A stretch of 64,000 nucleotides of DNA from Rhizodiscina lignyota (lineage: Eukaryota). The DNA is taken from positions 1 through 64,000 of the forward strand of contig ML978125.1 in the NCBI GenBank assembly GCA_010015805.1. The letters are read 5' to 3'. A program made the position numbers and the translations under genes. Positions 1 through 20,433 of this stretch are shown here, one piece after another. Positions within the stretch are counted from its first letter, which is position 1, and every line of letters starts with the position of its first letter. The notes under the pieces are model-generated. The model did no database searches. It saw nothing but the letters and a program-made list of their open reading frames with translations, and was not told where the DNA came from.

Positions 1-1755
1 TTAGCATACCTCTTAATCGTCTTACCCTACTACCTCACGTTTAATAGCTTCTTATTCGATATCTCGCCCGTCTCTCTCCTATTTACATAACATATAGCTA
101 TAAAACCTACAACTTCTAGCTGTACTACCTTTTACGCCTCCTAAATAACTATCTATACTATATTATACACCCTAACTAACTCCTACTCCCTTCTCGCATC
201 TATTATACTACTACTTTTACTATTACTTTTACTATTACTTTCGCTGTTACTACTTTTACTACTACTATTATCGCTACTATCGTCGCTACTACTACTATTA
301 CTATCGCTATCGCTCCTATCTCTATCTACTAGCATCTCCGCTATCTTGACTAACTACCTACGGTTAAACCCCTCTAAATACCTCGCCTATCCCGCCCTCC
401 TTAACTACATCTATAGTATATATCTATTCGTGTTAGCCTAGACTATTACCCTCTCCTCCTTAGCCTCTTACTTTAACCGCTTGTCTGCTAATATAAAAAC
501 CCTCTCTATCTGCCGCCTCGTAACGCGCTATGTCTACTTATCCCTATTAACTGTACTTTCTCCTTTATCTCCCTTACCCTTACCCCCTAGCCTCGCCGTT
601 ACCTTAAACAACCGCTACTACCCTCCTATCCTAAAAAACTACTAGTAATATACACCTACCGTCTATATCTCGTGCTCTTACGCCTCCGCAATAGCTAACC
701 TCGTCGCCCTACCGCGGCCGCGCCTGTTTACCTACCTATACTCCCTCTTATAATACTCCTATATATACTGTACCCTATAGTGTATAAATCCGTACTTACT
801 ATACCTAAACCTATTATCCTATAACTACAAACTGGCTAATAGCGCTAATATAGGCTCTAGGAACATAACGCCCTTATATACGTCTACTACATCTACTATA
901 CTAGCCGCTACACTCGCGATCGCCTTATAGGCCTTTACTATCGTCTTAGCCCTATACCTCTTATCTAAATACGATCGGACGTTAGCCTTAATAATAGCGT
1001 ACCTGTACTACCTGCAAATAATTACCTTGTACTATAGTAAATACTCGAAATAATCGCTAAAACCTGCTATCTCTCCCCTAATCTTTTAATCTCCCTCCCT
1101 CCTTAGTTCTACTATAGGTTCTTCCTTAACTAACGACTAGGGCAACTATTAAATAGCCTTCTAAATTTAATAATGTGTCTTATTATCTACTTAAATCCCT
1201 AATATTCTCCCCTTTTTCTCATTTCGTAGCTTTAACGCTTTAGCCCTAGCCGCGCTACGCGCGCACGCGCCCGCCCTACTCAAAACACGCGACTGCGAAA
1301 CTACTTCGTACTGCGGAAACGGGCGTGTACTACCCTATTACCCTACTATATTCGACTACAGCTTACCCGCCTTTAACTACAATTTACTTACTACTATCCT
1401 ACCTACCTACTACGTCCGACTACGACTTGTTTTACTTACTACATACTACACTAAACTACTCGCTCAGATTACGTGACCGCGAACACGAAAACTCCTACAT
1501 ACTATAGACTACGGCTATAACGTAACAACGCGCCGTAACCCTAATAGTTCTAACTACATAGCTAGATTAGGCGCGACTAGGACTATATTTCTACATGCTT
1601 AAAACCCGCCTACAGGCGCTACTTTACTACTTTCTCACAAATTACTTTAACCCTAAACCCTAAATCACCCCGACCCCCTCCTTATCCTGCCGGCGCTAAA
1701 TTTGTTAGTAGGCTTAAATCACTTCGAGTCGAAGTAATTATATAGTACAAGTTAG
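1..1755 (-). mobile_element. TLH (telomere-linked RecQ helicase)-type element, copy A (5' part; runs off the left window edge)
   Basis: Aligns with 4169-5923 at offset 4168. The minus strand from about 1070, after RIP reversion, reads F.HL.QYKVIICRQCRYAV...HL..H...C..C...HC..EHGW...CQQFF..GG.QRLFEV, which is the DUF3505 pattern. Confidence 0.8.
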
Positions 1756-4700
1756 CCTAACTAACTTCTACAACTACTTCCTTATGTCTGTCTTCTGTAT
1801 CGCTACCTACCTCCTAAACTCTTCTTTCTCCGCCTGCTACCTCCTACGGGCCGCTACTAAACCCTGCTCGGCTAGCTCCTACAATACCGATTCGAACATT
1901 AAAAACTTATGCTACTCCTTACTAACCTTCTAAAACATGACCTGCTGCGCTATAGTATAGAATAGCAACTTATTAACGCCCCTACTATATATACCCTCCC
2001 CTATCTACGCGCTATAGCCTGTCTACAAATAGAATCCGACCTCTCTCTAATTAAACCCGTTAATATGCTGCCCCTCCCCCTTCTCGTCCTCTCTCTACTA
2101 CCTACTATCCTTATCTCCTCTCGTAATAGCTTAGATAATAGCCTTATTATTAATATACTGCCTGTAAATCGCCTTGCTACTATACCTCTAATATATAATA
2201 TTTATCCTTACCCCTAAATATGTTATACTAGCCTTCTAGATCGCCTTTCTAACCCTATCCGTGTCCTAATACACCGTCTTTATTAATAGTAGCTACTATC
2301 TATCCTCTCTATTATCCCTTTCTTCTCCTCCTCCTCCTTCTTACCGTCTTCTCCCTCTTATCTTTAGGCCCTGCTACGCCTATTCTAGCTTTAGCTCCTA
2401 TAAAAACGGGCTGCGGCCGCTTCTACTACTACTAGCGATATTTCTACTATTATTGCCGGCGATATTACCGCTACCATCTCCTTTAACCTCTACCGCCGCC
2501 ACTACCGCCGCTACTATCGATATAACGGTAGAAACACTCTCTAACCTGTCCTAAAACAGCCTTACCAACTATAAATCGTATAATAATAACGACCTGACCT
2601 CGTGTAGCAAATACCGGTAGATTACCTTCTCCCTACTACTAAACCCTATACTCTTATAGTACTATACTATATATACTACTATCCTATCCTCTACGAAAAT
2701 GCCTCTACCCGCGCTGTCCACGCCGTTCTTATACCGTACCGTAACGATCTCTATACCCCTAGCCGGCTATCCTCCTATTATATGCATTAATACTAATAAA
2801 TCCTGCTTATACGCGTCTAAATCCTTCTTATACTACTAGATCCTATCTTTCTTCTATACAACCGGATCGCCGCTATTCTACTACTACCGCTACTACTACT
2901 ACTACTAGCTTCTATAGATTATATTATGCGTAGCCTTAGTATTAACAAACTCCTTACGTAACTGCCGCTCCCCTATAACTCTGTCTACTATCTACTTACT
3001 ACTATCGACGCCGCTAAACGCCTCTCTATTCCGCCTATTATCTACGAAACTCTACCTAACCCTTATCTCCACTATATTATCTACTATCTAGTCTATCTTT
3101 ACTAGTAGTAACCGCATCGTCGTATCCGCGCTATTAGGCCGGCCCTCGTTATCGACATGTAACAATAATAACCTCCTCTTAAACCTTAACTATAACGCGT
3201 ATACTAACCTATAGATTATCGCCTGTAAATCCGGCATACTAAAATTAATATAGCTGTATAATAACCTATCGCTAACCTAATCTACTACTCCGTCTACTAC
3301 TATACTATAATATACCTTTAACCTGTACGTCCTTAATATTAAAACCTAATTTATCGGCGTTAGCTTGCCGCTAAATGCGGTTAACGTTATAAACCTGTAT
3401 ACTATCTCCTACACTAACTAGAAATAGGTTAGCGCCTTCTTTAATGCCTCTACCCGGCTAAAACCTTACTCTTCCCTTATCTCTTTAATTACTACTTCCC
3501 TTATTAACTTCGCATAGTATAAAACTAATATCTTAGTGACTGTAACGACTGCTAACAATGCTCGCGTCGCCTTAGACAGCCCTTTCTACGCGTAATCCTC
3601 ATCTAACCCTAAAACCGCCAATCCGCTGACGATGCCGTTTGTATATGCGTCGTCCTGCACGTCGTGGTCTAACAATGCGATCAAAAACTCTAATATCGCC
3701 GCTTCCACCTCACCGTCTTCTTTATCTCCTTCCCTTTCTTCCTCTCCTTACTCCTACTCTTACTCCTACTCTTGCCCCCGCCCTTATACCTTCTTACCCT
3801 ACTCCTCTTCACGCCTAATAGCCTGTCTAACCTATATTAATACTCTAACCTATCTACTAGTTAATCTATACGGTAGTCTTTTCTACCTAATACTATTTTC
3901 TGCCTCTTCTCTCCCGTCCCTCCCTCCTCGCCTTCTTCCCTCTCGCCTGGCCCTTTCGATCTCTATACGCATCTCCTTATCTGACCCCGAATCCCTTTCT
4001 GAATCTTCCTCTAAATCCTCTTCTGCTGGCCCTGTCGACGCGTCCCCCGACCCGCTATTACTATCGCTACTACTACTACTCCTACTACTCTTCCTCCCCC
4101 TCCCCCCTTTTATCGCCTTTAGCAAACCCTATATCCTCTAAATATAACAAACTACCTTATACTAAACCTTAGCGTACCTTTTAATCGTCTTACCCTATTA
4201 CCTTACGTTTAACAGCTTCTTATTTAATATCTCGCCTGTCTCTCTCCTATTTATATAATATACAGCTATAAAACCTACAACTTCTAGCTATACTACCTTT
4301 TACGCCTCCTAAATAACTATCTATACTATATTATATACCCTAACTAACTCCTACTCCCTTCTTACATCTATTATACTACTACTTTTACTATTACTTTCAC
4401 TATTACTTTCGCTATTACTACTTTTACTACTACTATTATTACTACTATCGTCGCTACTACTACTATTACTATTACTATCGCTCCTATCTCTATCTACTAG
4501 TATCTCTACTATCTTAACTAACTACCTACAGTTAAACCCCTCTAAATACCTTGCCTATCCCGCCCTTCTTAACTACGTTTATAGCACGTATCTATTCGTA
4601 TTAGCCTAGACTATCGCCCTCTCCTCCTCGGCCTCTCGCTTCAACCGCTCGTCTGCCGACATGAAAACCCTCTCCATCTGCCGCCTCGTGACGCGCTGTG

Positions 4701-5238
4701 TCTGCTTATCCCCATTAACTGTACTTTCTCCTTTATCTCCCTTACCCTTACCTCCTAGCCTTGCTATTACCTTAAACAACTACTATTACCCTCCCGTCCT
4801 AAAAAACTACTAGTAATACACGCCTACTGTCTACATCTTATGCTCTTACGCCTCCGTAATAGCTAACCTTATCACCCTACCGCGGCCGCGCCTATTCGCC
4901 TACCTATACTCCCTCTTATAATACTCCTACATATACTACACCCTACAGCATATAAATCCGCACTCGCTATACCTAAACCCGTTATCCTATAACTATAAAC
5001 TGGCTAATAGCGCTAATATAGGCTCTAGGAACACGATACCCTCATATACGTCTACTATATCTACTATACTAGCCGCTATACTTACGATCGCCTTATAGGC
5101 CTCTACTATCGTCTTAGCCCTATACCTCTTATCTAAATGCGATCGGACGTTGGCCTTAATAACGGCGTACCTGTACTACCTGCAAATAATTACCTTATAC
5201 TATAGTAAATGCTCGAAATAATCGCTAAAACCTACTAT
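1756..5238 (-). pseudogene. RIP-inactivated TLH-family ORF (DUF3505 plus recombinase-like middle region), truncated
   Basis: Start ATG mutated to ATA at about 5238. Many TAG/TAA stops fall at Gln/Trp codons. The readable frame ends ...DIRKQLQKLVR at the 1756 junction. Confidence 0.8.
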
Positions 5239-5923
5239 CTCTCCCCTAATCTTTTAATCTCCCTCCCTCCTTAGTTCTACTATAGGTTCTTCCTTAACTA
5301 ACGACTAGGGCAACTATTAAATGGCCTTCTAAATTTAATAATACGTCTTATTATCTACTTAAATCCCTAATATTCTCCCCCTTTTCTTATTTTATAGCTT
5401 TAACGCTTTAGCCCTAGCCGCGCTACGCGCGTACGCGCCCGCCCTACTTAAAACACGCGACTGCGAAACTACTTCGCGCTGCGGAAATAGGCGTATACTA
5501 CCCTATTACCCTACTATATTCAACTACAGCTTACCCGCCTTTAACTACGATTTACTTACTACTATCCTACCTACCTACTACGTCCGACTACGACTTGTTT
5601 TACTTACTACGTACTACGCTAAACTACTCGCTCGGATCACGTGACTACGAATACGAAAACTCCTATATACCGCGGACTACGGCTATAACGCAACAACGCG
5701 CCGTAACCCTAATAGTTCTAACTATATGGCTAGATCGGGCGCGACTAGGACTATATTTCTATACGCTTAAAACCCACCTACAGGCGCTACTTTACTACTT
5801 TCTCGTAAATCACTTCGACCCTAAACCCTAAATCACCCCGACCCCCTCCTTATCCTACCGGCGCTAAATTTGTTAGCAGGCTCAAATCACTTCGAGTCGA
5901 AGTAATTATATAGTACAAGTTAG
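1756..5923 (-). mobile_element. TLH-type element, copy B (longest; 3'-truncated just before the expected helicase domain)
   Basis: Same right terminus (...GTACAAGTTAG) as copy A. Relic ORF carries DUF3505, WLRRAGWARHLEG, DN.AE.RVGWSF.DDRRN, TGGQPARG.E, YHK and IHRYLP..VG motifs, typical of fungal telomere-associated RecQ proteins. Confidence 0.8.
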
Positions 5924-8900
5924 TACCGTACTACGTATACTACTATCCTATCCTCTACGAAAATACCTCTACCCGCGCCGTCCGCGCTATTCTTATACTA
6001 TACTATAACAATCTCTATACTCCTAGCTAGCTATCCTCTTATTATATGTATTAATACTAATAAATCCTGCCTATACGCGTCTAAATCCTTCTTATACTAC
6101 TAGATCCTATCTTTCTTCTATATAACTAGATCGCTACTATTCTACTACTACTACCGCTACTACTACTACTAGCTTCTATAGATTATATTGTGTGTAGCCT
6201 TAGTATCGACAAACTCCTTATATAACTACTACTTCCCTATAACTCTGTCTACTATCTACTTACTACTATCGACGCCGCTAAACGCCTCTCTATTCCGCCT
6301 ATCATCTATAAAACTCTACTTAACCCTTATCTCCGCCGTATTATCTACTATCTAGTCTATCTTTACTAGTAGTAACCGCGTTGTCGTATCCGCGCTATTA
6401 GGCCGGCCCTCGTCGTTAATATATAATAATAATAACCTTCTCTTAAACCTTAACTACGACGCGTGTACTAACCTATAGATTATCGCCCGTAAATCTAGTA
6501 TACTAAAACTAATGTAGCTATATAATAACCTGTTACTAACCTAATCTACTACTCCGTCTGCTACTATACTATAATATACCTTTAACCTATACGTCCTTAA
6601 TATTAAAACCTAATTTATTAGCGTCGGCTTACTACTAAATGCGGTTAACGTTATAAACCTATATACTATCTCCTACGCTAACTAGAAATAGGTTAGCGCC
6701 TTCTTTAATGCCTCTACCCAGCTAAAACCTTACTCTTCCCTTATCTCTTTAATTACTACTTCCCTTATTAACTTCGCGTAGTATAAAACTAATATCCTAG
6801 TAACTGTAATAACTACTAATAATACTTATATCGCCCTAAACAGCCTTTTCCACGTATAATCCTTATCTAACCCTAAAACCGCCAATCCGCTAACGATGCT
6901 ATTTATATATGCGTCGTCCTATACGTTATAGTCTAATAATACGATTAAAAACTCTAATATTACTACTTCTACCTTACTATCTTCTTTATCTCCTTCCTTC
7001 TCTTCCTCTTCTTACTCCTACTCTTACTCCTACTCTTGCCCCTACCCCTATACCTTCTTACCCTACTCCTTTTTACGCTTAATAGCCTATCTAACCTATA
7101 TTAATACTCTAACCTATCTACTAGTTAATTTATATAGTAGTCTTTTCTACCTAATACTATTTTCTACCTCTTCTCTCCTATCCCTCCCTCCTTACCTTCT
7201 TCCCTCTTACCTAGCCCTTTTAATCTCTATATATATCTTCTTATCTAACCCTAAATCCCTTTTTAAATCTTCCTTTAAATCCTCTTCTACTAGCCCTATT
7301 AACGCGTCCCTTAACCTACTATTACTATTACTACTACTACTACTCCTACTACTTCTTCTCCCTCTTCCCCCTTTTATCGCCTCTAGTAAACCCTATATCC
7401 TCTAAATATAATAAACTACCTTATACTAAACCTTAGCGTACCTTTTAATCGTCTTACTTTACTACCTTACATTTAATAGCTTCTTATTTAATATCTTACC
7501 TATCTCTCTTCTATTTATATAACATATAGCTATAAAACCTACAACTTCTAGCTATACTACCTTTTACGCCTCCTAAATAACTATCTATACTATATTATAT
7601 ACCTTAACTAACTCCTACTCTCTTCTTATATCTATTATACTACTACTTTTACTATTACTTTCGCTATTACTTTTACTATTACTACTTTTACTACTACTAT
7701 TATTACTACTATTATCGCTACTACTACTATTACTATCGCTATTACTCCTATCTCTATCTACTAGTATTTTCGCTATCTTAACTAACTACCTATAGTTAAA
7801 CCCCTCTAAATACCTTACCTATCCTACCCTCTTTAACTATGTCTATAGTATGTATCTATTCATATTAGCCTAGACTATCGCCCTCTCCTCCTTAGCCTCT
7901 TACTTTAACTACTTATCTACTAATATAAAAACCCTCTCTATCTACTACCTTATAACGCGCTATATCTACTTATCCCTATTAACTGTACTTTCTCCTTTAT
8001 CTCCTTTATCCTTACCCCCTAGCCTTACTATTACCTTAAACAACTGCTACTACCCTCCTATCCTAAAAAACTACTAGTAATATACGCCTACTATCTATAT
8101 CTCGTACTTTTATACCTCTATAATAGCTAACCTCGTCGCCCTACTACGGCCGCGCCTATTTACCTACTTATACTCTTACCTATAATACTTCTACATATCC
8201 TCCTATGTGTAGTATATATGTCCGCACTTATTATACTAATAACTATTATCCTATAACTATAAACTAGCTAATAGCGCTAATATAGGCTCTAGATACTAGA
8301 CCTTCTCGCGTATAACTACGATGTCTTCTACTATAATACTACTTACTTCTACTATAATCGCCCTACGCGCGTCTACTATTAACTTACTCTTATACTTCTA
8401 GCTTAAATGTAAACTTATACTACTCCTAATAACGGCGTACCTATACCTCCTATAAATAATCGCCTTATACTACGGTAAATACTTAAAATAATCGCTAAAA
8501 CTTGCTATCTCTCCCCTAATCTTTTAATCTCCCTCCCTCCTTAGTTCTACTATAGGTTCTTCCTTAACTAACAACTAGGGCAACTATTAAATAGCCTTCT
8601 AAACTTAATAATACGTCTTATTATCTACTTAAATCCCTAATCTTCTCCTCCTTTTCTTATTTTATAGCTTTAACGCTTTAGCCCCTAGCTATACTACGCG
8701 TATATACCCGCCCGCCTACCCTGCTTAAAACACGCGACTACGAAACTACTTTCGTACTACGGAAATAGGCGCGTACTACTCTATTAACCTACTATATTTA
8801 ACTATAGCTTACCTACCTTTAACTATAATATACTACCTACTATCCTACCTACTTACTACGTCCGACCGCGACTTATTTTGCTTACTACGTACTACGCTAA

Positions 8901-9207
8901 ACTACTAATCCTACTTAGATCACGTGACCGCGAATATAAAAACTCCTATATACTGCGGACTATAGCTATAACGTAATAATGTACTATAACCCTAATAGTT
9001 CTAACTATATAGCTAGGTTAGGCGCGGCTAAAACTGTATTTCTATATACTTAAAACCCGCCCCTAGGCGCTACTTTGCTACTTTCTCGCAAATTAGGTTC
9101 GACTCTAAACCCTAAATCGGTCTAACCCCCTCTTTATCCTACTAGCGCTAAATTTGTTAGTAGGTTTAAATCAGTTCGACTTGAACTAGTCGTATAGTAC
9201 GAGTTAG
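5924..9207 (-). mobile_element. TLH-type element, copy C (truncated at the YHK motif)
   Basis: From 5924 it aligns with copy B from about 2660. Relic start at about 8508. Terminus ...GTACGAGTTAG at 9207. Divergent patch at about 8170-8430. Confidence 0.8.
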
Positions 9208-10227
9208 GGGTTTATAGAGCTAATTCTTATAGCGCCGGAAAGTGCGCGTAGAGGCGCATATTACGCTATTAAAACTGCGGCATTCCGTCGACGCGAAGGC
9301 GGGATATATAGTAGGGAAGAAGCTAGTCTGTCTTTTAGGCGCGCGGTAGTTAATCCTTCTATAGCCTTAACGTTAAATCTCCGCTAAGATTAAGGACATC
9401 TTAGCGCGCCTAGGGGGGTTACGGCCCTACTAAAGCCTATCTTCCTATAGCCCCTATTAGTAATATAGAGGTTGCCTAGGATTGGCCGCTATATTGCTAG
9501 AAGCTATTCTACTATATATAAAAGAAAGCGTAAATAGCTAGAGTAGGGTTAGTACCTTTATATTTAATTATAACCTTATATAGACAGACTAGGCTTACCT
9601 CTTAGCTCCTTTTCTGTCTATCTCCTCCTCTCCTTTTTAGTCCGCTTAGCGATAGTTTATAGTCTTTAGACTACCTCTAGACTTGCGTTTGTAGCTTAGG
9701 TTACGTGATATTTCGGAGAGAAAGACTTAGTTCTTACCTCTTAAAGGGTCTAGGGCCTTAAGCCTCTTACTAGCTTACTACTACTAGACTAAAGGGCTAT
9801 AAGAAGCTTAGTCGCTTCTTATATAGGTCTTTTAAGTGCCTTTAGCTAACTTAAAGCCAACGCGCTAACTGTAATAACATTATAAATAGTAGTACTCTCT
9901 TATAGAAGAGAGTCGACTTCTAATAGCTTTAGTTAAAGTACTAAGGTAGGATAACTACTATAGCTACCGCCTACTACTAGAGTAAAGGGTCCCCCTCTCT
10001 CGGCTAGTTCCTTTAGTTAATCGCGTATAAAGTAGGATAGGCGAGCGAGGGCGAAGGGGCTTAAGGGCTAAGAGGGTATATAGAGGTTAATACGCCCGCC
10101 TCTACTTCTACTAGGGGTACTACCTTAAGTTAAAAGAATATTTCTCTAGACTCTTACCTCTATACTTTACCTTACCTTACTAGACTCTATCTATCTATTA
10201 ATAAGGTCTTATATCCTTTTCTAGGGA

Positions 10228-10470
10228 GTACGCTTAGTGCGTAAGCTTATATACAACGCTCTTTAAGCGCTCTTTTAAAAGCGTACACTTAGTAAACTAG
10301 CTTTAATCTAGCGCTTTCTTAGCGCCTCTCTAAAGGGGTATACTTAGTATATAAGCTTATATGTAACGCTCTTTAGGCGCTCTTTTAAGAGCGTGTACTT
10401 AGTAAATTAGCCTTAATCTAGCGCTTTTTAGGCGCCTCTCTAGAAGGGTATACTTAGTATACAAGCGTTA
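10228..10470. repeat. 55-bp tandem repeat with 110-bp higher-order period
   Basis: Units start at 10228, 10283, 10338, 10393 and 10448 (gtacgcttag/gtatacttag...). Alternate units are more alike. Related copy at about 10822-10895. Confidence 0.8.
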
Positions 10471-10500
10471 ATATAGTGCGTCCTTACTACCCTCTTCCTT

Positions 10501-11050
10501 AGGGAGGATCCTACCTTAGCCTTTACTAGCTTTCGACCCTTTTAGGTCCTTTACTAGATCTAGAGGGCCTAGAAGGCGCGCCTTAGCTACTTCTCCTCTT
10601 TTAGAGAGGATTCGACCTCGGTCTTTACTAGCTTCTAGGCTATTTTAGGTACTTTACTATATTTAAAAGGCCTTAAGGCTATAAATAAGGAGGTATATAT
10701 ATAGCCCTACTTAGAGAGGATTCGACCTTAGTCCTTACTAGCTTCCGGCTTTTAAGATACTTTGCTAGACTTTAAGCTAGGTAGAGAGTTACGATCTAGA
10801 TATACTTAAGGAACTTAGAAGCGTACTTAACGTACAAGCTTGTATTTAACCTTCTTTAGGCGCCCTTTTAAGAAGGTACGCGTAGCGCGTAAGCTAATCT
10901 CTACTAGACTAGATAGAGTTACTACTATTATACTTCTTAGTTATCCTACTATCTTTACGCGATTTTATAGGAAAGAATAGTAGGCTTTATTAAGGGAGAT
11001 ATATATAGCCTTACTTAAAGAGGATTCGACCTCGGTCTTTACTAGCTTCT
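10501..11050. repeat. Dispersed ~32-bp motif AGAGAGGATTCGACCTCGGTCTTTACTAGCTTC, four copies
   Basis: Copies at about 10501, 10603, 10713 and 11017. Confidence 0.75.
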
Positions 11051-11249
11051 AGCCTTTAAGGTACCTAGCTAGCCTCTTCTATATAGGGTATACTACTACT
11101 ACTAGTAAAGTAGTAAAGCGATTGTTTACTACTAGGGCTATTCTTTTATACCTTGTACTAGTACTCTACTATACTACCTATAGTAACGATCGCTCTTAGC
11201 AATCTACTCCTCCTACTCTACCTTACTCTAGCTTATCTAGGGTAGTAGC

Positions 11250-14200
11250 GCTAGAGGCCTACTTAGCTAGTACCTCTTCTATAGCTACGCCTAGTAGTTA
11301 TATAGCTCCTTATTACCTACTATCTTAGCTAGAGCTACTACTACTACTATCCTCTTTGTCTATAGTAGCCGCGCTACTATAGCTCTCCTCGCTACTTACG
11401 CGTTTATATTAAGGCTAATAATACTAATTAAATACTATATCCGCCCTCTACTCTTACTCTTCTTCCTTATACCTAATAGGCCCGACTACTTATCCGCGTA
11501 TAGGAGTAGCTAGTAGAACCTAAGTAGGTACTTATATAGGTACTAGTTAAATACCCTTCCTAGCTCTACCTCTCCTCTTTTACGCGGAAGGAGCTTAAGG
11601 CTAGCCCTTACTACGCTAAAAAGGGCATAGTACAACTTCCTCTCGTACGTACCTAAGTACGCGTAGCTATTATTGCCTCTACTAGGGCTAAGTAAGATAG
11701 TAGCAACGTTTAAAGGGTATAGGGTCCTAGTCTTATTGCCTAATATAAGGTAGAAGTCGTCGCGTATAATCTTAAACAGGTACTTATAGTAGAATAGCTA
11801 TAGGCCCTAGACCGCGCGCTTATAGTACTCCTCTAGTACCTACTTACAGGCTATGCTAATAACGTTAGCGCGGAGCTACTATAAGTAGATATACGCTAGC
11901 TAGCGTACTATACGTCCTACTATCTTCTCGTTACGCTAGTACTTTCTAGCCTACGATAGCGCTAGCTCCGCCTGTATACGCGCGTTAAAGAAGTCTTATA
12001 CGCGGCTACTACGCTAGAAGTACTTTCTATATAGTATGCTACTACTAAATAGCATATAGTCCGTTACGTTCGACTAGAAGGCTAGACTAGCCTACTTAAA
12101 CCGTAGCTCTAGCTAGTAGTAGCTATATTATAGTAGCGTATTATAGAAGCCTAGCCCTACCTATACTCTCTACTACCTATTCTACTTATCGCCTACTACC
12201 TACTTACAACGGCTCTACTATAGTAATAACTCCCTCCGTAGTTAGTAGCTACTAAGTACGAAGTAGAGGTAGTATAGGAATATAGTTATTATCTTCGTCT
12301 ATTCCTATAGTATTAACCTACTATAGTACTACGCTAGGACTATTTCGAAGCCGGCGGCGAACTTATTAGCGTAGTATTAGACGAAGCCTAGGTAGATATT
12401 AGTCCTAATTAGCTACGCGTATAGCGGGTAGTCTATAAGTAGGAGCTCTTTCTCTTACTACTACTACTACTACCGCTACTCCCTCTCCTCTTATAGCTAG
12501 GGGCCTTATATAGCCTTATAGAGCTTTAGGCGGTCGATAAGGCCCTAGAATAGCGACTAGCGTATCTAGTACTCTTCGCGGATACTAAAAGACTTTTACG
12601 TAGAGTCTTGAAGCGTAGTATTAGTATAGTGCTTACTAGCGTAGTACGTATCCCTTAGTATAGCTACGTCTCTAGAACGGCCTCTTATAGCGCTATAGGC
12701 CCCCTAAAGGACTACTAGGTCTATAGCTAGGTCCTTAAGGTCGCTATTAGCGAATAGCATCTACTTTATAGCGTCTTACACCTCTTTTACTAACGTGTAG
12801 AACTAGCTATAGATAAGGCCTCTCTAGTAGAGCTTAAAGCGTGCTAGTAGTACGCTTATAAGGCTATAGGCATTATAGAGCATGTTTAGCTTAAAGTACT
12901 ACTACCTACTAGTCCTAGTAGCTAGAAGGCGGCTATTATATATTTAGTACGTATAGCACTCTAGGTAGTACCGCTTCTAGTAGTATACCTACGCCTTATC
13001 GTCGATATACTACCGCTATAACTAAAGTAGGCTTACTTCTAGGCAGATCTCCTTCGCGAGGTCGATATAGAAGTAGTCCCTATATATAAAGGCGAGGTCG
13101 AGGGCGCGCTTAATATATGCCTTAAAGTAGCATATCGCGTCTAGTAGTATAGGCTATACCGCGCTTATTTTAAAGCGTAGCTTTATCCCCTTTATAGAGA
13201 AGAAGAGCTATAAATCGCGGAAGTTGCTAAGCTATAGCAAGCCTCTAATAGTATCCTAGATAGTAGCCTAAATGCGGTCGAGGTATAGTAGCTAGATATA
13301 GTAGCTAATACTCTACTACGTCTAGTACCCCTTCCCTCTTACGCTTTAGGCCTCTATCTAGTAGGCCTACGCGCTTACTCACGAGTACGCGGCGCTAGCG
13401 GGCAGGTACTAGACGTAGTGTATACTATAGTACTCGTAAACTACGGGAAGAAGGATATTATTAAGCTAAAGTAAGTACTAGCTACTAGTTAGCGACGTAA
13501 ACTTCCCCTCGTACGCGTACTATATATATAGGAACAGTATATACACGGTAATCTTATCTACGCTAGATACGCGGCTAAGCTAGAAGTAGGGGACGTTACG
13601 GAGTATAGTAAGATAGGACTATAGAGCGTAGGTAGTATTATACTCGTCCTACTACCCTATAAATACAAGCGTCTTTAAATAGATATTAGTAGTAATATTC
13701 TGCGTTAGTATTAGTACTAGCTATAGTAGAAGCCTACTACGGGCTATAGTAAGGCTACTACTAAATCCTAGGAAGCTATTAATGTTAAAGGCAACCTAGG
13801 CGCCGATAGCGCGTATCTCCTCTACGTATAGGTAGACGCGCGCTAAGAGGGCTAGACGGCGCTAGCTACGTCTTTAGCAGATCTACTAGAGGCCTACGAG
13901 CTGCTACTACTAGTCCTATTATAATATAATGCTATAGAAGGTAGCCTGCTACTATACTTCTATTAGCTGCTCCTACTACGCGAGGCGGTCTAGCGTAATA
14001 ATATCGGGTAGTAAGAGTATATTAAGAAAGGCCCTATCGTTAGATAGGTCCCTTAGGCTATAGTACTTACTATTAACAGCTACTACTACTACTTCGTGCT
14101 TATAGCGCTTATCTACGTACTCCTCTTCTATATAGCTATAGAAGCTATATTATAGCTAGTTATATAGCTTTTAGACTGTATAATCGTATATTAGGAGCTC

Positions 14201-15395
14201 CTTATCCCCCTCCTCTTCTCCTCTCTCCTATATACTACCTACTAGTATACTAAGATCCGCGCTTAACGCTACGTCTATAGCGTCTATAGCTACTATAACT
14301 ACTACTACTATACTAATATTAGCATCTTAACCTAAAGCTACGTCTACTACTACTACCCTAGGATCTTCCGCTAGTACTACTAGCCCTACTACTACTATAA
14401 CCTATACTATATCTACTACTATACCCTATTTATCTACTACGCGTATATTAAGGTCTATATCTACTAGTATATTATTAGTACTTAGTACGTCTACTACGCT
14501 TAATACGTCTAATATCCTAGTTTATAGTAGGCTAGTAGAGCTAGTAACTTTAGTAGTAGGGGGAGGGCGCTATAGCGTGTAGGGTATAGTTAGGATAGTA
14601 AGGTTTAGTTAACGCGAAGGTAGGTTAGGTAGAAGAGAGATCTATAGCGTAAAGAGGATACTAGTAGCTATACTTATAGCTATACTTATAGCTAGTAGTA
14701 GTAATAGTACTAGTAGTAGTACTAGTAGTAGTACTAGTAGTAGTACTAGTAGTATAGTAGACGAGGACGCTATAGTAGGTAAGAGGGCTTAGAAGAACTA
14801 GTAGATACTATGCTATCCTACTATTAGTAGGGACTTTAACTTTAACTTTAACTTTAGCCTTAACTTTAACTTTAGCCTTAGCTTTTCCCTAGCTTTAGCT
14901 CTAGTCTTAGTTCTAATAGGCCTACGCGCTACTACTACTTCTAAGTATAGTAGGTTTAGGTAAGTAGAGAGGTACGTTTATACTATTGCTATTATTGCTA
15001 CTACTACTACTACTACTACTACTTCTTCCTCTACTACTATTATTAATAACGACAGTAATAATAATAATAGCAATAGCTACTATTACTAGTATAGCTAGCT
15101 ATACTCCTCTACCTCCTCTACCTCTTTCCTCCTATCCTACTACTACTACTCCTACGTATTAAGGCTAAGGCTAAGGCCTTATAGCTACTAGCTAACGCTA
15201 GTAATACTACTAAGTATACATATAGCGTCTAGTTCGTTAAATAGGCGCTTAGCGATAGTATTAGCCTACTATAACTACTCTATAGTCTAGTATAGCTATT
15301 ACGCCTCCTCCTCCTATTATAGCTCCCTCTTCTCCTTCTAGCGCGCCTAGTACCGCTATACACGCTCTATAATACCCTTATACAGACTAAGGGCA
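11250..15395 (-). pseudogene. RIP-inactivated large ORF of an uncharacterised fungal repeat-associated family
   Basis: RIP-reverted motifs in order: ERV.RY.ARQKE; low-complexity linker; GFHGC.EEEH; FDIDSFLGFSSSLAVAR; LRDVPHF.LGRV; YVQHLPAS; DFRDLQLFFSAKGTKL; FYIDLAKEIC; GGLIYSQFY.SVKE; SFGIREEHRI; GLGF.NTL..YGYCWLEPR; HWLLPY...RMWYSI. Ends are approximate. Confidence 0.7.
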
Positions 15396-15690
15396 TATAG
15401 GTTAGTAGTATTAGTTAATAGGAGCTATCCCCTCTTAGGGCCTAAGGCTAGTAGCGCTACTACTAGTACTAGTACTAGTAGTAGTAGTAGTAGTAGTACT
15501 AGTAGTAGTACTATCTCTCCTCTTATAGCTACCCTACTCCCCTCCTACCCTCTATATATATAGTATCTCTAACCCTCTATCTATCTATAGCGTATAGCGT
15601 AATAAAAGAGATAGTAGAGGATAAGCGATTAAAGAGAGGAGAGAGAGGATAGGAGATAGGTAGATAGCTACTACTACTACTACTATACTT

Positions 15691-16390
15691 ATTATATAGG
15701 TATTATAATCTAAAATTAGATTAGAGCGCCTACCCCTACTACCCTACTCTATAAGTAGTATAGTAGTAGTATTATAGTAGTAGTAGTAGTAGTAATAAGC
15801 GATAGAAGGCTAAGAAATACTATATTAAAATTAGAGAGGAAAGCGGAAGAGGGCGTAGAGTAGCTACTTATACCTTTATTTCCGCTCTATTAACGCTACG
15901 CGCGCGTACTAGCGAGACTTTACGCTCTACTATAGCGCTTATTACGTAGGCGTTACAATTTAGCGCTAGCCCTCCGCCCTTTTACTCTACAAGCAGCGAA
16001 AGTAGCGCTAGGCGGCGCGAGGCCTTAAATAGAGCGAGAATAAAAGCGTACGCAGCTACTCTACGCCCTCCCCTACTCTTCTCTCTAATTATTATATAGT
16101 ATATACTATCTCTCTCGCGCGCGCGCGCGTAGCGAGCTACACTCTTAACCCTAGCTTATAGTTACGTAGGTATTATAATTTAGCGCTAGACCTCTACCCT
16201 AAAAGTAGCGCTAGGCGGCGCGAGGCCTTAGATAGAGCGAGAATTAAAGGCGCACATAGCTACTCTACACCCTCCCCTACTCTTCTCTCTAATTATTATA
16301 TAGTATATACTATCTCTCTCGCGCGCGCGCGCGTAGCGAGCTGTACTCTCGTCTCGACCCCTAGCTCGTAGTCACGTAGGTATTACAATT
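15691..16390. repeat. Iterated terminal repeats: ~210-220-bp direct repeats, ~75-bp inverted repeat and a 20-bp motif in four copies
   Basis: About 15999-16180 matches about 16202-16390. About 15818-15891 is the reverse complement of about 16028-16101. GTCACGTAGGTATTACAATT variants at 15691, 15941, 16161 and 16371. Confidence 0.85.
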
Positions 16391-17866
16391 CACCCCTACG
16401 CCTCGCCCTCTCCGCCGGCGACCTCTCCAACTTTGCCATACTTACTATACTACCACGCCGCGAGCTATTTAGTAAACAAGACCTACCCTCTACTGCCTGT
16501 GCCCGCCGCTCGCCGTCCCGCTCTTTTTTTCCCCTATTTAGGCCCGCCGCGCGCCTGAGCCCTAAGCCGAATCCGAGCCATAGAAAAGGGGCGGAGAGAT
16601 CGATGCCGGATAGAGTAAATCCGGCTCAGCTCATTAAATCCGCGCGTCCGATATCTCTCATCCTTCATAATATCTCTCATTACTGCCTCTCTGAAGAGCC
16701 CTCATAGCACGTCCAGTCTAATGTCTGGGCATCACGTCTGTTTGACAGCTTTATCTCTCCGTCTTTGCTTCGTTTGAGCAGATTTGGCAACTTTGCGCGA
16801 AGCTCTGTTCCTTGATCGCGGTGGAGTTCCGGTGGAGCTCCGGTGGACTTCCCCGGATTAGTTCTTTCTTCTCTCGTCACAATTGTGGTCAACTCAATCT
16901 AGATCCTTGTTCAAGGGCTTAACAACAACTTGGGTCATTCATTAATCGGCAATCCTCGGCGGATTCGGCTCTGATTCGGTCGTATACGGTGCTCAGCCGA
17001 CAGGTTCTGATTCAGGACTCCTTGGACAATCTTGGTTCATGATAGCGAATACCTATGCAGCGACCAAAGAAGTTGAAGCTTGTCCTGGGCATGCCCTGAT
17101 TCAAGTCTGAGTCAACATGCTCTACATTGCAACCTTGTTGGTTGTAAAGCCCAAGACACCATCCAAGACACTATCAGCAAGAAAACGGAAGAGAGCCTCA
17201 TCTCGCTGACCAGAACTCATTCCTGTCCGTATACCCAATCCGTCGGTAGAAACCAATGCATGGCTTTTCGGTCCACAGCATCTTGCATATGAAAGTCTTG
17301 TTGGTGCCCAGGGAAGTATTTCCAAATCGTTCCCATCTTTCTCGTCGTGTCTTTGCTATTCGTTCCATTTCCCCAATTTCTTCTCGCTTGTCTGTGGGTC
17401 TAGACTCTAGACTGGTTTGAGCCTTGCGGCCGCCCGGGGACCGTAGCCCAGATTCTCGGTAAATGTACACCATTACAACTTGATAACCATTGGATGGAAG
17501 AGCTAGGGCAAATTGTCAACCTTAAATGATCCTTCCCGGACACGCTAACATGAGTGGACCGCCCCACTTCTCCACACGCCGCAAAATTAGCTCAAACCTG
17601 ACTCGCCAACCCCAGAGTTCTCCGCGGGCATGGTTCTAGGCTTATTGGCAGTGGTTCGACCTCATCTTAACAGCTTGTTACCTCAAGCCACGTCTTATCG
17701 TCCTCATCCCCTCCTTTGTGGCTTACCATACCCTCGGTTGTCTCTGGGAAGGATCGGGAAATTGAAATAGAACGATATAAGAGAGTGTGTATCCCTCAAT
17801 GTAATCGTTCTACAAGGATCGAATTCTTCTCGCGCGATAACTAGGCCTTCCAAATCTCATGCAGTC

Positions 17867-19697
17867 ATGGGGCGGCTAATCCCAAATGTCTTCAATCTCC
17901 TTGTGGTCATTTACGTGGCCCTTGGATCAACCGCTTGTTCATATGGCATGGCAATTATTGGGTACAGTGCTTCCAGTCGGAGACCGACGTTTGGCTGATC
18001 GGATACCAGCTCCACCATTGGACAGCCCAGTTTCTTTAAATCTTTAGGTCTTGCAATGCAAGGCGAACCTGGATATTCTCGTACTGCCAGTTTCGTTGGT
18101 GGCTTCAATGGTGAGTTGATGACTTGTTGTGCGATGACTACGAATCGTGGGATTCGCTGACAGATTACAAGGTGTCAATTCTGCTGGTTCTGCAATCGGT
18201 TGTGCCATCTGCTCGTATTGCGCCGACAAGTTCGGTCGAAAGCGAACGATTCAAGTCGCTGCGGTTGTCCTCATCATCGGTGCTGCTCTCTGCGCAGGCT
18301 CGGTCGATAATGGCATGTTCCTTGTTGGTCGATTTGTCAATGGTCTCGGCATTGGTGCGCTTGTTGCCGCAATTCCAATGTACCAAGCCGAAGTCTCGAC
18401 ACCAGAATCTCGTGGATTTATGGTTTCTATGCATGTAAGTCTGGCAACTCCGCTCATTACGAGAGATGCTGATCGTATACAGGGTGTCATGTTTGCCATG
18501 GGCTATACTCTCTCAGCGTGGATTGGCTTTGGCGTGTACTTTATTACCGCCAGTGGCTCCACCTCTACCTTTCCATGGCGCTTCCCCATTGCCTTCCAGA
18601 TGGTTCCGGCGATTCTTCTCCTCATCGGCTCACCATGGCTACCGTTCAGTCCTCGCTGGCTCATGATGCAGGGTCGCCATGAAGAGGCTCACAACGTTTT
18701 AATGCGGCTGCATCGGGACAAGAACGATCCTCATGATACCACGGCACGAAAGGAGTATTATCAGATGAAGAAGCAAGTCGAGTTTGACCGGCAGATTAAG
18801 TCTACTACATCCAAGTTTGAACTCTTCAAGACGGGACCGAACCGGCGCCGTGCTCTTGTTGGCTTTGTGCTCATGTGGAACAATCAATTCACCGGTGTTC
18901 TCATCATTGCCAATTACGGAGTCATCCTGTACACGTCTCTGGGAATGACTGGATTCATGCCGTTGCTGCTTAGCTCGCTTTGGGTTACCTCGACCTTTCC
19001 CGGCAACATTTTCTGCGCATTCTTTGTAGAGAAATTTGGACGGCGAAAATTCTTGCTCACTGGTCTGTGTGGGATCCTTGTTGCTTTGATTTGCGAGACG
19101 GCACTTCAAGCGACGTACCTCGGAGGGACGAACAGGGCTGGACAGAATGCAGCCATCTTCTTCATCTTCCTCTTCATCACGCCGTTCTGGAGCACATTCA
19201 TCGACGCCAGTCAATTCCTCTACGTGTAAGTTTAGTCCTCCCCGAAATTCAGTTGCACTGACGTTTCATTTCCTCGTAGATCTGAAATCTTCCCAACCCA
19301 CATCCGCGCTCAAGGTACAGCCTTTAGTATGATGGGACTCTACCTTGCTGACATTATCGTCCTCGTCGCTGGTCCAATTGCGCTTAACAACATTCAGTGG
19401 AAGTTCTTCTTCGTTTTGATTATCCCGACCGCATTTCATATCGTCTTTGTCTATTTTATGTGTCCCGAGACGAAAGGCCGCTCGCTTGAGGATATCAACA
19501 CTCAGTTTGGAGAACAGGTTGCCATTCACTACTACGGCGCGAATGAGCAAGAGAAGCATGAGTTTGAGATGGCCATTGAGGAGGATGAGAAGCATGATGC
19601 GACGCATGATCATGATCGCCTTGATCCCATTGATATCACAAAGGCGCCGGATCAGACAACGCATGTCGAGGATGTGACGGAGAAGCGTGAAGTCTGA
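17867..19697 (+). CDS. MFS sugar porter (5 exons)
   Basis: ATG at 17867 (MGRLIPNVFN...). DKFGRK, GRFVNGLG, PMYQAEVS..ESRG, PFSPRWL, NQFTG and PETKGRSLE motifs. GT-AG introns at about 17963-18009, 18111-18171, 18435-18482 and 19226-19279. Confidence 0.92.
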
Positions 19698-20433
19698 AGT
19701 CTTCAGGTTTCGGAAATGGGTCGGCCAACTGTGAATCACATTTCGGCCATCTTGTACGGTACTCTGAGATACAAGACAACGAGCTCCTCGTTCCTCCATC
19801 GTTTTATTCGATAGTTATGAGGTGATTTCAACTCATTGAGATTGTTCGTTCAATCTCTTCTGTACCATCAACAGGGACTAAAGAACTCCAATTTAGAACC
19901 GGTGGAACGGATGAAAGAAGAGGTGACGTTAGATTAAGATATCTTGCAGTTAGAACGTGCACAGGGTAGGTCGCGCTCTTGCATCGCAGCATCTCGTCGA
20001 TCTGCATCAGGCAAAGGGGCCGACAACCCGAACGACAAGGGTTGTTTCCCACGGAATACTTCCACGGAACACCACGGAACACTCTGACAGAAACCAATCA
20101 TTGGGATTTCATTTTCACCAATAAAGCCTTGGAGGAAATACCCTCAAATCATCCCATTCCATTAAATTTGTTGTGGGTGTTGAGACTCACGAGAGAAGTC
20201 AGTTGCGAACGAGAATGAGACGATCCCATTTCACTCGTCCAAATGAACCTGAGCAATGCCACTTCAGCAGTCAAGCTTAGAGTTATTCAAAAGTTCTCTG
20301 TATATATGAGGATGCTGCAACTTAACCGCACTTCTGCGGATATAAGTGAAACGACCGGATAAGATGGAATCATCAACCCTCTGTGCATTACAGCAATTAG
20401 TGTCTATGAGAGTGGTCCACGGCTCCAAGCTGA

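Follow-up and report, generated by a model that had tools for sequence, protein, structure and literature searches.

Stacked, truncated TLH units at a chromosome end of Rhizodiscina lignyota suggest a one-ended recombinase-helicase element

The window analysed here comprises the first 64,000 bases of contig C5 of the Rhizodiscina lignyota assembly (33.4 Mb in 33 contigs). It carries a strong signature of repeat-induced point mutation (RIP) over approximately positions 1-16,400 (composite index 1.4-2.9, with negative index values further in), and this part therefore represents a fungal subtelomere. It begins with a head-to-tail array of three copies, A, B and C, of a unit that is a member of the fungal telomere-linked helicase (TLH) family, as delimited by self-BLAST (1-1755, 1756-5923 and 5924-9207; pairwise identity 83-92%). 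In all three the gene lies on the minus strand as a single open reading frame (ORF) that is broken by RIP. Contig C5 starts at window position 1, and the left limit of copy A is hence the assembly end and no junction. The features are as follows.

1..1755, minus strand: TLH unit copy A, outermost, variant subfamily; cut by the contig start; 42 transversions in common with B, none of them in C
1651..1755, plus strand: fixed terminus of A, with three subterminal motif copies, a palindrome and the final GTTAG
1756..5923, minus strand: TLH unit copy B, RIP-inactivated; stops just short of the RecQ helicase; the least-mutated copy shows the target TGG
1880..2860, minus strand: 'TLH domain' of B, a putative tyrosine-recombinase catalytic domain; limits approximate
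4900..5238, minus strand: N-terminal OrsD/DUF3505 C2H2 zinc domain of B (Pfam PF12013); limits approximate
5819..5923, plus strand: fixed terminus of B, the variant shared with A
5924..9207, minus strand: TLH unit copy C, innermost and most mutated; cut within Y-H-K of the putative recombinase domain
9103..9207, plus strand: fixed terminus of C, canonical type
9208..10183, strand not assigned: RIP-mutated flank that received C
10184..16584, minus strand: second subtelomeric repeat 'S', which may start further left; own fixed inner end ...CCATAGA, 11 copies; large ORF

A sequence-only reading of the window had held that the three copies finish at one common base and that B and C are truncated at different points. 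Both observations stand: the shared end ...GTAC[A/G]AGTTAG falls at 1755, 5923 and 9207, B is truncated directly before the RecQ motifs, and C inside Y-H-K, 904 bp earlier as measured on the C2 copy. Across the genome, a 15-nt terminus pattern gave 21 matches, against 6 for a control pattern; 20 of the 21 are no further than 14 kb from a contig end, and the interior match, C4:2070253, lacks flanking homology and is attributed to chance. Sequence beyond GTTAG differs between copies and the flanks are unrelated, identifying GTTAG as a true terminus. The fixed end faces inward at all 18 termini on contigs long enough to show polarity (C30 and C33 are too short), and neither an interior or inverted copy nor one with a second junction was found in the genome-wide map and the fetched contig ends. 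Telomere tracts are assembled at the left ends of C2, directly on a cut unit, and C10, with the same polarity, so that the TLH gene is telomere-adjacent and points toward the telomere; that of C5 itself is unassembled. Seven contigs break off inside an unmutated terminus. The stacked architecture of the window recurs at C10, C21 and L119, the latter being one of 79 metagenome loci that served as an unmutated comparison set. The map thus bears out the view that units were joined, time after time, by one defined end into copies already in place.

Read support was assessed in short-read contigs from one public run. Five read contigs diverge from the window at 9207, each with a different loose end, and one exact read contig spans 9179-10634, with only 29 letters left of 9207 (the rule being 31 letters). 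Among the matches listed, none bridges 1755 (A to B) or 5923 (B to C). A read contig with mostly T>C and A>G differences has a depth of 1246, compared to 118-127 for four single-copy contigs, a ratio that corresponds to roughly ten intact, unmutated copies, depth itself being no copy number.

The sites that received the units could be read from element-free copies of the flank for 16 of the 20 termini. The base triplet removed at the junction conforms to YRG in 14 of these cases by script and in 15 by hand (the disagreement, C10:13381, lies within tandem paralogs), and the final base is G in all 16, against a YRG background of 2-8% on the target strand (P ~5e-14 at 8%). Positions +1 to +4 of the flank are unbiased at these targets. 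While the donor reads TAG, the least-mutated copy reads TGG at both window targets, and the six least-mutated target readings in this genome are TGG or CGG. What had been taken for about 3 nt of microhomology (TAG/TGG) is better read as a YRG target preference. Because RIP could convert TGG or CGG to TAG beforehand, preference and microhomology are inseparable in this genome alone.

In the unmutated loci, units begin with CTATCCC, CTATCAG, CTAAC or CTATCTA on the gene strand (CTAWC), and L119 forms a three-unit array of the same design as that of the window. CYR, equivalent to YRG on the opposite strand, was present at 6/8 targets and C at 8/8, with a background of 2-6%. The targets, on the gene strand, are the following.

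L119: CCA and CTG (own copy, 99-100%)
L115: CTA and CCA (read via L102, 100%)
L136: CCA (88-91%)
L133: CTA (partial)
L129: CTT
L102: CAA (79% homolog)

The seeds for these junctions were chosen after inspecting unit starts, and junctions with unrecoverable targets were excluded (L098, L099, L111, L114, L118, L125, L126, L137 and L175, and one junction each of L115, L119 and L136). The targets TGG, CAG, TGG and TGG, as read on the opposite strand, come from 89-100% identical copies. Targets with CCA or CTG gave junctions that carry the donor CTA; the constrained bases were therefore removed during the event. This pattern points to an enzyme that would read an intact target, rather than to annealing at a random break.

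The fullest copy, C12, is approximately 7.1 kb long, and its product has an OrsD zinc domain, followed by a central domain and by DEAD and Helicase_C domains; its 81 homologs (over residues 800-1300) are RecQ-type TLH proteins. The RIP-mutated C12 copy matches PF12013 (OrsD/DUF3505) at E 7e-5, short of the cut-off, and the best intact homolog does so at E 3e-20; the C and H columns of the zinc domain are conserved among homologs. Its start codon lies at ~5238 in B, ~1070 in A and 8508 in C, the domain being diverged in A and B. The helicase has DEAD and Helicase_C matches, with RecQ1, RecQ5 and BLM as best PDB sequence matches, and is missing from all three window copies through truncation. 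Pfam gives no match to a reverse-transcriptase family in the single ORF of the unit.

Upstream of the helicase lies a conserved domain that we equate with the published TLH domain by position, rather than by alignment to M. oryzae TLH1. Its AlphaFold model (pLDDT 82.9) is best matched in VIA-align by XerA (Z 11.1, rmsd 3.4, 157 aligned), followed by XerH (9.1) and Cre (9.0); the 29 best rows are all tyrosine recombinases (YRs), topoisomerase IB or YR-fold chains, IntI included, and unrelated rows reach Z <=3.5. As modelled, the TLH domain thus has a tyrosine-recombinase fold. R750 (in GxPxRxxE), K785 (in YHK), R923 and Y984 are present in 81/81 homologs and H975 in 75/81 (P0002 numbering), with an H-to-Y spacing of 9; these candidate catalytic residues were assigned via motif and order, not by residue-level superposition. 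In copy B, the predicted catalytic codons are R ~2760, K 2655, R 2187 and Y 1989, and the position of the histidine, 2016, reads Y owing to RIP. Upstream of the catalytic domain, VIA-align ranks 1-3, 5 and 6 are YR N-terminal domains, all of them weak matches, and Foldseek gives nothing at E <= 0.001 for this upstream model. A profile search of PDB sequences returned helicases throughout the best 60 rows, and no YR among them. YRs stay attached on the 3' side of the cut they make, and this fits donor TAG and target YRG, which share a strand and are both immediately 5' of the joint. RecQ translocates 3'-to-5', according to the accessible part of 10.1101/2024.02.27.582403.

Counts of RIP-type differences on shared columns suggest an age order of the layers. 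Outer to inner, they amount to 99:313 for B and C, 151:197 at C21 and 87:168 at C10; in each of these pairs it is the inner copy that has mutated further, consistent with the youngest lying outermost, with the pair A and B being equal. The 42 transversions at identical positions in A and B are absent from C and from nearly all other copies and are located in the terminus and the zinc domain, while the remainder of B has no transversions relative to C. A and B therefore had a donor other than that of C, and the array did not arise by tandem duplication. The variant first kilobase spans 746-1755 in A and 4914-5923 in B. Here the zinc domain has changed in concert with all three subterminal motifs and with the palindrome, the latter on both arms. 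This suggests that the zinc domain may read the subterminal repeats, binding domain and sites co-evolving.

The chromosome ends are built up in layers from four repeats, H (the window unit), U, T and S, each of which has a fixed inner end. U (e.g. L061) ends in TTAG, has TLH matches and has the targets CGG and CAG. T (e.g. L035 and L038) ends in GAGTAG and has TLH-domain matches; U and T are both stacked with H and S at several ends. The fixed inner end of S recurs at 11 places with variable outer ends, and S is once joined into a TLH body (C10:5077); its copy at 10184-16584 is an older layer of the stack. The S ORF exceeds 1,000 residues and its protein has 955 relatives; no Atlas match and, in 25 of 150 listed relatives, no informative Pfam match was obtained, nor was a recombinase found there. 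For the flank 9208-10183, between copy C and S, a second copy was not found among the fetched contig ends. A telomere lies downstream of the gene at 8 of the 79 loci. At L107 (1-140), a run of 20 CCCTAA repeats leads precisely into a TLH terminus that hardly differs from the one in this genome, a join compatible with TTAG|GG, and L107 is possibly a telomere-capped linear form.

Based on these observations, we propose that the unit, approximately 7 kb when whole, is likely a one-ended, telomere-oriented mobile element whose single protein unites zinc fingers, a YR and a RecQ helicase. Its recombinase would join the one end of the element to a YRG target, and the distal chromosome arm would give way to the new unit. 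One-ended transposition is the best supported of the three options that the sequence-only reading had offered. In this mechanism, the YR would act on the C-rich strand, which runs from telomere to centromere, cutting it after TAG in the donor terminus and after YRG in the subtelomeric target, and the donor 3' end would be joined to the target 5' end. The new unit, together with the DNA out to its telomere, would then replace everything distal to the target, and repeated rounds would pile up truncated copies with the youngest outermost. More speculatively, the 3'-to-5' helicase might load at the nick and peel the strand telomere-ward, with replication completing the process and copies being gained. 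Alternatively, one crossover between chromatids would yield identical junctions; given many identical copies and no reciprocal product, we lean towards copying over an arm swap by crossover.

Several alternatives bear on the same junctions. Host repair, in which a broken end captures a TLH unit via break-induced replication or microhomology end-joining with the YR-like domain uninvolved in the junction, appears unlikely. It draws on the fixed end that S has without a TLH gene, on TAG being present on both sides at all junctions of this genome, in RIP-mutated copies, and on the duplicative capture of subterminal DNA at failed telomeres in Pyricularia, described in the accessible text of PMC8381367. 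However, it leaves the base-exact donor end at 20 places without a reason, and at unmutated junctions, with donor CTA against target CCA or CTG, <=1 of 3 bases is shared and the lost bases are still constrained. Plain microhomology healing is insufficient because the lost TGG and CAG differ from the donor TAG in unmutated arrays, and the passive healing of a break that had been suggested is disfavoured by these constrained bases on the lost target side. We consider it distinctly unlikely that a Crypton-like, two-ended nested insertion occurred and that the displaced outer halves were lost afterwards via telomere truncation. YR transposons are usually two-ended, and terminal truncation is real, with telomere repeats directly on a cut unit (C2) and a cut S (C10), but no second junction, interior copy or inverted copy was found in the genome-wide map and the fetched ends. 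At C10, whose assembly reaches the telomere, the stretch from the junctions outward does not contain the missing 3' halves expected under nesting, and no cut half joined to a foreign inner flank occurs among the fetched ends; nested insertion, also among the initial suggestions, is disfavoured accordingly, although lost halves could have been removed by later truncation.

A free linear intermediate, its terminus released or joined to telomere repeats and the capped molecule later recombining into chromosome ends, is very unlikely: the exact join at L107 fits it, and GAGTTAG agrees with the telomere G-strand at 6/7 bases, but L107 is 1 of 79 loci, and the 8 others with a telomere have it downstream. 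An assembly artefact or unequal crossing-over is less likely still. The array does lie at a contig end with 2 of 3 junctions unconfirmed by reads, yet the units are unequal, the copies differ by 8-17% and the A/B subfamily is distinct from C; a YRG rule is not expected from an assembler, and C10, C21 and L119 repeat the architecture. Least probable of all is reverse transcription in trans of an antisense RNA with its 3' end at the fixed terminus, as in MoTeR-, FoTeR- or Penelope-like elements. Such elements are typified by a fixed inner end combined with outer ends that vary (accessible parts of PMC8381367 and PMC12857005), but the unit has no reverse-transcriptase domain, the RNA would run antisense to the gene, the retained flank has neither a tail nor priming homology, and the variable ends are the cuts of the next copy.

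Other observations weigh against the proposed recombinase-helicase element itself, whose cleavage and movement are predictions. For the central domain, Foldseek gives no match at E <= 0.001 (YRs rank first, with a best E of 0.28), Pfam PF00589 gives no match in 6 intact TLH proteins, and the core-binding-like match, at Z 4.0-5.2, is below the usual noise level. The 16 local targets, which RIP may have turned into TAG prior to joining, do not separate preference from microhomology, and targets other than YRG exist, namely AAG (C33, L129) and TTG (L102, from a 79% homolog). The groups L142/L144/L145/L172 and L122/L132 share boundaries that lack a CTA start. The TLH-related T family fits YRG at 0/2 targets, and S is likewise one-ended, yet with no TLH match and no YRG rule (2 targets); the rule thus leaves S and T unexplained. 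A and B are equally mutated (75:71 RIP-type differences), and the L107 gene points away from the telomere.

For two decades it has been asked what role TLH genes play, and why they occupy most chromosome ends in some fungi but none in strains related to these. The unit resembles other fungal TLH regions in its C2H2/OrsD, TLH and RecQ domains, its telomere-pointing gene and its sharp inner boundary. Among the TLH copies of M. oryzae, divergence sets in at the first or the second C of CCTAACC (accessible part of PMC1635262), a sharp boundary that matches the CTAAC unit start found here. The accessible part of 10.1101/2024.02.27.582403 reports TLH arrays including truncated units in F. oxysporum and calls the function of the TLH domain undetermined; telomere repeats are described as flanking each Fusarium unit on both sides, whereas the window junctions have none. 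As far as the accessible parts of these publications indicate, TLHs are treated as host genes, recombination substrates or neighbours of Helitron-like repeats (PMC8381367, 10.1101/2023.02.05.527183, PMC5576322, PMC12857005, 10.1101/2022.03.07.483234). A published link of TLH to a recombinase, a target rule or arm replacement was found neither in these accessible parts nor in titles and the opening lines of abstracts, subscription papers such as the 2009 TLH-domain paper lying outside this search.

Among recombinases, the likeness is to XerA, XerH, XerD, Cre and the integron IntI, through the catalytic fold and the R-K-R-H-Y set, the upstream match to the core-binding domain being weak. The TLH unit differs from these in its fusion to RecQ, its single element end and three-base target, in that the HxxR histidine is not seen as invariant and PF00589 is unmatched, and in its outcome, which would be arm replacement instead of insertion or excision. 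Cryptons and Starships are YR transposons; the window unit is set apart from them by its one defined end and by displaced target halves that were not found. IS91 and Helitrons transpose by a one-ended rolling-circle route, with one obligatory and one variable end, a short target rule and no target duplication, and further share a helicase partner and palindromes near the end, but the TLH unit would have a YR fold rather than HUH and has RecQ rather than a Pif1-type helicase, is confined to chromosome ends, and has variable ends that stem from later overwriting. MoTeR and FoTeR likewise form terminal arrays with one conserved end; the TLH unit has no reverse transcriptase, and its targets, L107 aside, are in subtelomeric DNA and not in telomere tracts. 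By the features tested, the unit is in all likelihood not a Crypton, Helitron or retroelement, and probably works like a one-ended YR transposon. Borrelia ResT, a telomere-fusing enzyme of bacteria with hairpin telomeres, belongs to the YR family and turns chromosome ends into mosaics by reshuffling them; here, the ends are of the telomerase type and the putative enzyme is carried by the element. Y' units of S. cerevisiae are generally whole and separated by telomere repeats, unlike the window units. As subtelomeric helicase units in tandem arrays they are nevertheless similar (accessible part of PMC1635262).

We give about even chances to the broader reading that TLH regions across fungi constitute an undescribed class of eukaryotic DNA transposons, in which a YR-RecQ fusion would cut one strand both at the only end of the element, GWTAG, and at a YRG target, the helicase would peel off the unit as far as the telomere and the copy would replace the chromosome tip, with several families overwriting each other in layers, each zinc domain co-evolving with the subterminal repeats of its family, and a capped linear form that may exist (L107). 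If true, the TLH family, long taken for host telomere machinery, would be recast as selfish DNA and as a new transposon class, whose mechanism builds fungal subtelomeres and deletes genes distal to each joining event, causing subtelomeric gene loss and exchange. A one-ended recombinase mechanism would account for TLH polarity, the base-exact boundary, truncated arrays and patchy presence, and the defined substrate (terminus and YRG) together with a candidate catalytic residue makes the TLH question directly testable.

Further observations concern the termini. Two palindromes precede TTAG, but terminal hairpins were rejected as a Helitron-like signal, as folding is not clearly better than that of shuffles (z was -1.5 at the unmutated end and ranged from -0.5 to -2.2 in the window copies). 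DNA alignment of termini across families was uninformative, and the coding boundary shared by L114, L126 and L146 was considered as a candidate and rejected as not being a terminus. Short tandem terminus duplications of 29-123 nt occur at L025:6162-6208, L115:105-165, L129:3348-3470 and L136:110-138; they are as expected for a unit joining just inside its own end, and may be the origin of the M. oryzae HAR-C arrays. At L025:90-110, telomere repeats have been added within the TLH ORF at a RIP-made TAAC match, which is de novo healing after inactivation. The right end of C6 (L039, ~2,700-2,925 from the end) holds an older, diverged H-like promoter region with a terminus unlike that of both subfamilies. 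In the window, the first ordinary gene past the subtelomere is, by eye, a sugar-transporter-like gene with introns at 17870-19700.

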